A stretch of 397 nucleotides of DNA from the NCBI RefSeq assembly GCF_003334315.1, contig NZ_QOWR01000135.1, one strand, 5' to 3'. Under the pieces are notes generated by a model. The model worked only from the letters and a program-made list of their open reading frames with translations. It was not told the origin of the DNA and made no database searches. This DNA is from Escherichia coli. Lineage in GTDB: Bacteria > Pseudomonadota > Gammaproteobacteria > Enterobacterales > Enterobacteriaceae. Shown piece after piece: positions 1 through 397 of the stretch. The position numbers and the translations under genes were made by a program. Within the stretch, counting starts at the first letter, position 1; the number at the start of each line of letters is the position of its first letter.

Positions 1-159
1 CAGCCTGCCGTGACGGTCATACCGGTAAAGATAGTGCGCGTCACGGGCGATACGGTTATCCGGCCACATGCTGAGGGTGCTGTCCGGGTGCAGCTCCGGG
101 TCGGGCAGGCGGTTACCTGCCGGGTCTGTGGCATACGGGATATCAATGCCCAGGTTACA
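1..159 (-). CDS. Rhs-family YD-repeat protein, internal core fragment (partial; 5'-truncated, 3' end continues beyond window position 1); probable orphan rhs cassette or rhs pseudogene
   Basis: Reverse-complement frame with codons 159-157 down to 3-1 is open for 53 codons: [53 protein letters not shown]. It ends in the Rhs/YD-repeat signature Y-R-Y-D-x-x-G-R-L and closely resembles, from memory, an E. coli Rhs core segment (...[40 protein letters not shown]). GC about 63% versus about 29% in the adjacent spacer. The same frame stays open upstream to 186 ([11 protein letters not shown]-rich, no Rhs similarity) and is closed by TAA at 189-187; the open stretch 186-1 has no ATG/GTG/TTG before the Rhs-like sequence (first in-frame ATG is at 69-67). 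Confidence 0.85.
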
Positions 160-321
160 TATAATAATAAGAGCAATTAACTTAATTTATTTGTTTATAA
201 TGCGCTTACTTAATACAAACCATTGAATATACCCTCCTGACAGAAAATAAAGCCATATTATTATCGCCATAATATACTTACTATCAATCCTTACGCCAAT
301 AATGTCTGATACAGTCCCTAT
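160..321. other. AT-rich spacer (about 29% GC) between the Rhs core fragment and IS1
   Basis: Hand count gives 46 G+C in 161-320, against 95 G+C in 1-150. The composition changes abruptly around 150-160, where the Rhs-like sequence ends. Confidence 0.7.
187..321 (-). pseudogene. 3' remnant of an ORF interrupted by IS1 (hypothetical small hydrophobic protein; possibly an Rhs-associated immunity gene)
   Basis: Minus-strand frame starting at 321 is open for 44 codons (IGTVSDIIGVRIDSKYIMAIIIWLYFLSGGYIQWFVLSKRIINK) and stops at TAA 189-187. The other two minus-strand frames hit stops within their first 12 codons (TAG 320-318 and TAA 293-291; TGA 286-284). The open frame abuts the IS1 end at 322, and within IS1 the same frame has a stop at 339-337, so it is not read out of the element. 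Only internal ATG is at 270-268, with no convincing Shine-Dalgarno. Confidence 0.3.
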
Positions 322-344
322 GGTGATGATGCCAACTTACTGAT
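322..344 (+). repeat. IS1 left terminal inverted repeat (IRL, about 23 bp)
   Basis: GGTGATGATGCCAACTTACTGAT at the element boundary. Contains an IHF-like site on the complementary strand (about 333-345, CAACTTACTGATT read as YAANNNNcTGATW, 5/6 in the conserved hexamer); IHF binding within IS1 ends is established knowledge. Confidence 0.8.
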
Positions 345-356
345 TTAGTGTATGAT
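329..356 (+). promoter_or_regulatory. insA promoter (PIRL), partly within IRL: -35-like ATGCCA (329-334), 16-nt spacer, -10 TATGAT (351-356)
   Basis: Hexamers read directly from the sequence; -10 TATGAT is 5/6 to TATAAT. The IS1 transposase promoter is known to overlap IRL and to be repressed by InsA binding there. Exact hexamer assignment is my inference. Confidence 0.45.
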
Positions 357-376
357 GGTGTTTTTGAGGTGCTCCA

Positions 377-397
377 GTGGCTTCTGTTTCTATCAGC
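377..397 (+). CDS. insA: IS1 InsA (transposition regulator / N-terminal part of the InsAB' transposase), first 7 codons only
   Basis: GTG start at 377-379 preceded by Shine-Dalgarno GAGGTG (366-371, 5-nt spacing) and an in-frame TGA at 365-367. Codons GTG GCT TCT GTT TCT ATC AGC give (M)ASVSIS, matching the InsA N-terminus MASVSISCPSC. Frame ends exactly at the window edge. Confidence 0.85.

Follow-up and report, generated by a model that had tools for sequence, protein, structure and literature searches.

Dissociated rhs tips have been described by Jackson et al. (2009; PMC2935791) as bounded by a GC peak and by core homology, with core fragments that vary in length. The same authors have proposed that a circular intermediate takes part in the homologous recombination by which tips are displaced. 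Orphan rhs-CT/rhsI modules have been described by Poole et al. (2011; PMC3150448). Such orphans usually lack translation initiation signals and are activated through recombination of the main gene with the orphan (Koskiniemi et al., 2014; PMC3967940), and internal promoters near the tip have been reported for Salmonella orphans (PMC7043789). The DNA considered here is a stretch of 397 nucleotides from Escherichia coli (the window), and it contains an abrupt breakpoint at the edge of the rhs fragment ybfO. We regard it as very probable that an orphan ("dissociated") rhs toxin module of the E. coli RhsC element has its 5' boundary at this breakpoint, and that the breakpoint was brought there by the insertion of a cassette. 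Like the orphan rhs-CT/rhsI modules in the literature (PMC2935791; PMC3150448), ybfO is made up of a partial 3' core, a variable tip and a small downstream ORF. As in the dissociated modules of Jackson et al. (PMC2935791), its boundary is a GC peak together with the onset of core homology, and nothing essential differs. The rhs-main/rhs-CT-orphan pair of Salmonella Typhimurium LT2 (STM0291/STM0292; Koskiniemi et al., 2014; PMC3967940) likewise has an orphan without translation-initiation signals, whose homology to the main core permits the fusion of the orphan toxin to the delivery part. The homology between main gene and orphan is 1043 bp at about 97% for ybfO, compared with 522 bp at 95% in LT2, and the evidence for recombination of ybfO comes from natural chimeric alleles, whereas in LT2 the mechanism was shown experimentally (PMC3967940). 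Specific to ybfO, as against the described orphan modules, are a diverged patch of 15 nt at its edge and the presence of one junction before two displaced tips. Features of this kind, with their GC signature and their use as substrates of recombination, are already known from the literature, and the current understanding of them is unchanged; ybfO provides a clean and well-populated example.

The window matches the RhsC locus of E. coli, with positions 1-321 being 100% identical to K-12 MG1655 (L003, 7289-6969) and the genes of the rhs locus lying on the minus strand (Table 1). The order in K-12 is ybfA, rhsC (4194 bp), ybfB (327 bp), the pseudogene ybfO and ybfC, followed by ISAs1/H-repeat remnants, and the start of ybfB overlaps the stop of rhsC. 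RhsC is said to have been described originally by Zhao et al. in 1993. For L001, a strain whose layout is that of the window, PGAP annotation gives an RHS fragment "missing N-terminus" that extends to window 156, a ybfB 3' fragment at 187-321 and then an IS1 transposase. The translation of 187-321 matches YbfB residues 64-108, and the AT-rich upstream ORF, correctly kept apart from the Rhs frame in an earlier note on this DNA, is therefore ybfB, the small ORF directly after rhsC. This ORF is presumed to be the RhsC immunity gene. The 5' edge of ybfO has been annotated inconsistently, by 87 nt, at window 69 in K-12 RefSeq and at window 156 by PGAP in other genomes. The K-12 pseudogene (b0703, NC_000913.3) is the same DNA as window 1-321; its record starts at the first in-frame ATG, window 69, and its core homology reaches 141-156. 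The edge of the pseudogene belongs at window 156, where core homology ends, and not at the first ATG.

Table 1. Features of the 397-nt window, in window positions
Feature	Positions	Strand	Remarks
ybfO orphan rhs core fragment, 5' part	1-141	-	Counterpart of core nt 2695-2835 in full-length rhs genes; falls within the match to NCBIfam RHS_core NF041261
Diverged terminal patch of the core fragment	142-156	-	Same length as the core segment; PGAP pseudogene edge at 156
AT-rich 30-nt spacer, ybfB stop to core fragment	157-186	-	GC 16.7%; core match at chance
ybfB 3' part, codons 64-108 and stop TAA (189-187)	187-321	-	100% identical to K-12 ybfB; PGAP ybfB fragment
IS1 left end inserted in ybfB	322-397	+	insA start GTG at 377; aligns to annotated IS1 copies

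Alignment of window 141-1 with the full-length cores of K-12 gave 141 of 141 identical positions for rhsA and for rhsB, 139 of 141 for rhsC and 115 of 141 for rhsD, with about 80% for rhsE. Nucleotide identity to rhsA and rhsB ends at window 141, which corresponds to core nt 2695. In the patch that follows, the orphan reads AACCTGGGCATTGAT and the core AATCTGGATATCCGC (N-L-G-I-D as against N-L-D-I-R), with 8 of 15 matches to rhsA (p=0.017) and 9 of 15 to rhsD (p=0.004). The spacer matches the core upstream of nt 2681 at 8 of 30 positions, which is chance. The 62-residue frame of the window covers positions 906 to 959 of the NCBIfam RHS_core profile NF041261, the alignment beginning at frame residue 9, about window 162, with profile position 906. 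On these alignments, we place the homology breakpoint proper at 156/157, with a diverged terminal patch on the core side. Since the PGAP edge and the start of the RHS_core alignment agree with a boundary near 156, the interval of 145-190 proposed in the earlier note does contain the junction; its estimate of where the core match stops needs correction, as nucleotide identity to full-length cores stops at 141 and not at 160. Its expectation that alignment to full-length rhs genes would find no core similarity running through 160-321 was confirmed, the match being at chance beyond 157. The same alignments uphold a recombination or truncation endpoint over gradual decay, with identity to rhsA and rhsB falling from 100% to the chance level across 16 nt. 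The patch may derive as a relic from an unsampled donor, may be a scar left when the join was made, or may be the extreme end of the homology, beyond the reach of gene conversion. Its coding variant G-I-D-I-P-Y had no match in 100,044 species representative genomes, nor, in core context, in JGI metagenomes.

The change in base composition at the breakpoint is sharp as well. GC amounts to 62.8% in window 1-156 as against 28.5% in 157-321, and the best single change point falls after 139-155, with a log-likelihood ratio of 20.8 compared with a maximum of 9.5 in 2000 shuffles. In a sliding profile of 30 nt, GC goes from 0.57 (121-150) to 0.27 (141-170). The sharp fall from 63% to 29% that had been read from the sequence earlier is thus borne out by both analyses. 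The step comes about where GC-rich DNA of the rhs core (about 63%) meets the AT-rich DNA of a tip/immunity cassette (about 28%); once it is recognised as the boundary of a module, ybfO need not be taken for an independent gene in decay. Minus-strand translation also agrees with a single in-frame TAA (189-187) between the AT-rich ORF and the Rhs frame. This stop is in frame with the Rhs frame, for which the chance expectation is one in three, and nothing in the minus-strand frame points to readthrough of it. An imperfect 20-nt palindrome at 161-201 spans the ybfB stop (70% complementary, 1-nt centre at 181, perfect core AATTAA-G-TTAATT); it is probably compositional, in DNA at 17% GC, and a repeat search of the window returned weak AT-rich matches only, this palindrome among them. 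At E <= 1 the window had no match in Rfam, the fold of window 120-230 on the minus strand showed no structure (z = -0.09), and a terminator scan of the window found none. Promoter-like sites numbered four in the window against 1.1 expected, all of them at 237-356 in AT-rich ybfB or IS1 DNA; the interval 145-190 held neither a promoter-like nor a terminator-like site in the window scan. Any internal promoters near the tip, of the sort reported for Salmonella (PMC7043789), would be located beyond the window.

Beyond the window, the core fragment of ybfO comprises the 3' part of the core only. Homology to rhsA spans core nt 2695-3737, the N-terminal region is absent, and beyond core nt about 3715-3737 the orphan no longer resembles rhsA, rhsB or rhsC. 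The orphan frame covers positions 906-1261 of the 1261 of the RHS_core profile and scores 770.8 bits, compared with a cut-off of 2000; with score and coverage both falling short, ybfO is a fragment and not an intact-protein member of NCBIfam NF041261. The Pfam family RHS PF03527 also matches the orphan frame, and TIGR03696, the Rhs-associated core domain, matches its residues 287-364. In K-12 the frame continues through YQYPLNPVQYIDSMGL, a demarcation motif of the PxxxxDPxGL type, into a unique tip of 152 residues. None of the three NCBIfam matches of the orphan frame reaches this YbfO-CT tip (frame residues 365-516), and YbfB and YbfC matched no NCBIfam family. The ybfC gene (189 aa), a candidate immunity gene, shares 4 nt with the end of the orphan frame. 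The order of rhsC (4194 bp), ybfB and orphan agrees with the position of an orphan rhs-CT/rhsI module. No in-frame ATG, GTG or TTG occurs from the TAA at 189-187 to the ATG at window 69-67. In every feature checked, ybfO appears to correspond to a rhs-CT/rhsI module of the orphan type, with the start signal judged from sequence.

The junction is widespread within the species. A junction-spanning query of 116 nt, at a coverage of at least 80%, found it in 2664 of 5426 complete E. coli genomes. Among the matches listed, all 32 junction-spanning rows had ybfB annotated next to an RHS fragment, and every other core copy matched only from the position equal to window 141. A 24-mer of the junction was absent from all species representatives, which suggests that only a subset of E. 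coli carries the junction. A second location was found at the rpmE-metJ locus of strain EC21Z-144 (L021, 6998-9289), where the ybfB stop, the 30-nt spacer, the patch and the core fragment are identical base for base. There the core fragment runs into a different tip (…NIDPLGL|YEFKSKN…), which is followed by "dsORF-f3", and upstream of the junction lie a remnant of RhsC-CT cut by ISAs1 and an intact ybfB. The arrangement of ISAs1, RhsC-CT remnant and ybfB of this locus is present in 149 genomes. Because an identical junction precedes a different tip at rpmE-metJ, the junction travels with the RhsC-CT/ybfB cassette and not with the displaced tip. This observation weighs on a simpler explanation, in which a once full-length tandem rhs gene lost its first 2.7 kb or so by a deletion ending at 156/157, with no cassette insertion. 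Such a truncation would leave the same end product, a partial core without its 5' part, and the primordial joining event is beyond reconstruction; an identical junction, spacer and patch before a different tip at a second locus is, however, unexpected from a local deletion. The alleles of the RhsC locus described below, in which two-module and one-module forms differ by exactly one 1871-bp repeat unit and haplotypes are chimeric, speak against it as well, and we consider simple truncation unlikely.

The same start point at two loci could also be taken to mean that core nt ~2695 is a preferred cut or recombination site that generates orphans repeatedly. The flanks argue otherwise, as spacer and ybfB are identical at both loci, which indicates one junction that was copied. 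Orphans in K-12 start at core nt 2186 (rhsE), 2695 (ybfO), 3261 (yibJ), 3496 (ylbH) and 3531 (the second fragment of the RhsA locus), and Salmonella rhs fragments, in arrays with an RhsC-CT/ybfB-like module, start at yet other core positions. The DNA of the junction offers no notable fold, no Rfam match and only the weak AT-rich palindrome. A site-specific origin is for these reasons very unlikely, and the idea of a recurrent orphan start point, put forward in the earlier note for checking, has to be given up, with five different starts in K-12 and others in Salmonella. Its companion idea, that the junction is shared with other rhs fragments, stands in so far as the junction is copied at a second locus with identical flanks, and fails in that independent reuse of the site was not found. 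The concern that the junction might be unique does not apply, given the same-locus copies in the 2664 genomes and the copy at rpmE-metJ.

Relatives of YbfB are almost all from E. coli, the few named exceptions being one Shigella-labelled UniRef cluster and two Salmonella proteins. Contigs of Salmonella enterica (L011-L014 and L016) carry RhsC-CT-like modules of 79-83% amino acid identity as orphans in long rhs arrays. These modules are paired with YbfB-like ORFs of 66-74% amino acid identity, and L011 carries two copies. A further contig (L015, with 83% to YbfB) was left out, as it looks like an error-rich assembly. In the Salmonella ybfB-like cassette, homology to E. coli is lost about 7 codons before the ybfB stop, and a different spacer and a core fragment starting at about nt 3558 follow. 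With its different spacer and core start, this cassette was of no help in dating or placing the E. coli join.

The distribution of the tip extends beyond that of the junction. DNA searches found YbfO-CT and ybfC in 3518 genomes, about 850 more than the 2664 with the junction. At the same locus, kdp-ybfA…ybgA, strains EDL933, PF9285, PRO_A-1478, SX45, C 236-04A and F8111-1SC3 have one full-length rhs gene of 4200 bp with YbfO-CT as its tip and ybfC behind it, and lack RhsC-CT and ybfB. K-12 and PF9285 differ by exactly 1871 bp, which is the distance from core nt 2695 in the main gene to the same position in the orphan. Haplotypes were scored at the sites where the main core and the orphan core of K-12 differ. 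Four of the single genes carry K-12 "main" SNP alleles in their 5' part and "orphan" alleles in their 3' part, and the switches all lie 3' of the junction: at core nt 3679-3705 in PF9285, at 3523-3645 in SX45 (where nt 3408 is the one discordant site) and at 3022-3379 in PRO_A and C236. The simplest reading of these chimeras is at least three independent crossovers between main gene and orphan, each deleting RhsC-CT/ybfB and joining the orphan toxin to the delivery scaffold. EDL933 and F8111 are mosaics that fit neither simple haplotype pattern. The main core of STN0717-20 carries many "orphan" alleles, indicating that gene conversion between main gene and orphan also occurs, and the haplotype logic is blurred by it. 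We infer the direction of change between two-module and single-module alleles from the haplotype chimeras. At the nik/rhsB locus of strain WCHEC96200 (L010, 4276-9029), a full-length rhs gene carries a tip and immunity-type pair with 96% identity to YbfO-CT/ybfC, so that the predicted YbfO-CT toxin module is present at two rhs loci of the chromosome.

The window closes on the right with a stretch, 322-397, that aligns at 98.7% to IS1 copies, namely the annotated one in L001 and three in L002. It interrupts ybfB after codon 63 (junction 321/322), where K-12 continues as an uninterrupted ybfB, and is evidently one end of an IS1 insertion sequence; the stretch at about 322-344 we take to be its terminal inverted repeat. 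This truncation of ybfB by an IS1 end had gone unrecognised in the earlier note. None of the genomes in the E. coli collection has IS1 exactly at 321/322. In about 60 genomes IS1 lies one nucleotide away and is of another variant (GGTGATGCTGCC, as against GGTGATGATGCC in the window), and this neighbouring insertion, also that of L001, is flanked by a 9-bp duplication, CAGTCCCTA. The copy in the window looks like an independent insertion. In L002 (6223-6990) IS1 occupies a different site of ybfB, with a 9-bp duplication equal to window 214-222, and in several of the top matches to the RhsC locus IS1 lies at yet other positions close by. IS1 appears to have targeted the AT-rich ybfB repeatedly. 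With an IS1 end 165 nt from the junction in such a target, an IS-mediated deletion or rearrangement might be invoked as the source of the junction. We consider this extremely improbable, since K-12 is identical over window 1-321 with ybfB intact and no IS1 there, and the junction occurs in 2664 genomes as against 67 that match a ybfB-IS1 query (window 275-397, matched over at least 80% of its length). No IS terminal inverted repeat is present at 156/157.

Along the minus strand, the locus runs through rhsC (full core and RhsC-CT), ybfB, the 30-nt spacer, a partial core of core nt about 2681/2695 to 3737 fused to YbfO-CT, and ybfC. Under the cassette-insertion account, which we prefer, we infer that a single illegitimate event created the join at 156/157, which has since been passed on with the RhsC-CT/ybfB cassette and forms its right-hand end. 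The cassette would enter a resident rhs gene via a homologous crossover in the core, and the resident tip would be pushed downstream behind the junction. Entry could be that of a circle by a single crossover or of a linear fragment by a double crossover, and the product would be the same. RhsC-CT and YbfO-CT are presumed to be toxins and YbfB an immunity protein. As a delivered toxin the orphan would be silent, because no in-frame start codon lies between the ybfB stop and the core. Its 1043 bp of core homology would provide a substrate for RecA-type recombination with the main gene, by which the 1871-bp unit with RhsC-CT/ybfB would be deleted and YbfO-CT grafted onto a full-length Rhs; the junction marks the upstream limit of the homology between main gene and orphan. 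The shared junction before two tips and the multiple natural crossovers support cassette integration, short of proof.

A more specific possibility, which we put forward tentatively and think somewhat less probable than its opposite, is that the spacer and patch are the closure scar of a mobile unit of about 1.87 kb (core nt 2695-3737, RhsC-CT, ybfB and spacer) that enters different resident rhs genes through homologous crossover. If so, the presence of one junction both before YbfO-CT at kdp-ybfA and, at rpmE-metJ, before the dsORF-f3-linked tip would amount to direct sequence evidence for the displacement by a circular intermediate that Jackson et al. hypothesised, and the several crossover points would show that orphan activation recurs in wild E. 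coli. Rhs loci are arsenals of polymorphic toxins in which orphan modules are held in silent reserve. The extent of core homology that an orphan offers for recombination with the expressed gene is determined by its 5' edge, which in this way affects the ease of toxin switching and the loss of the previous immunity gene.
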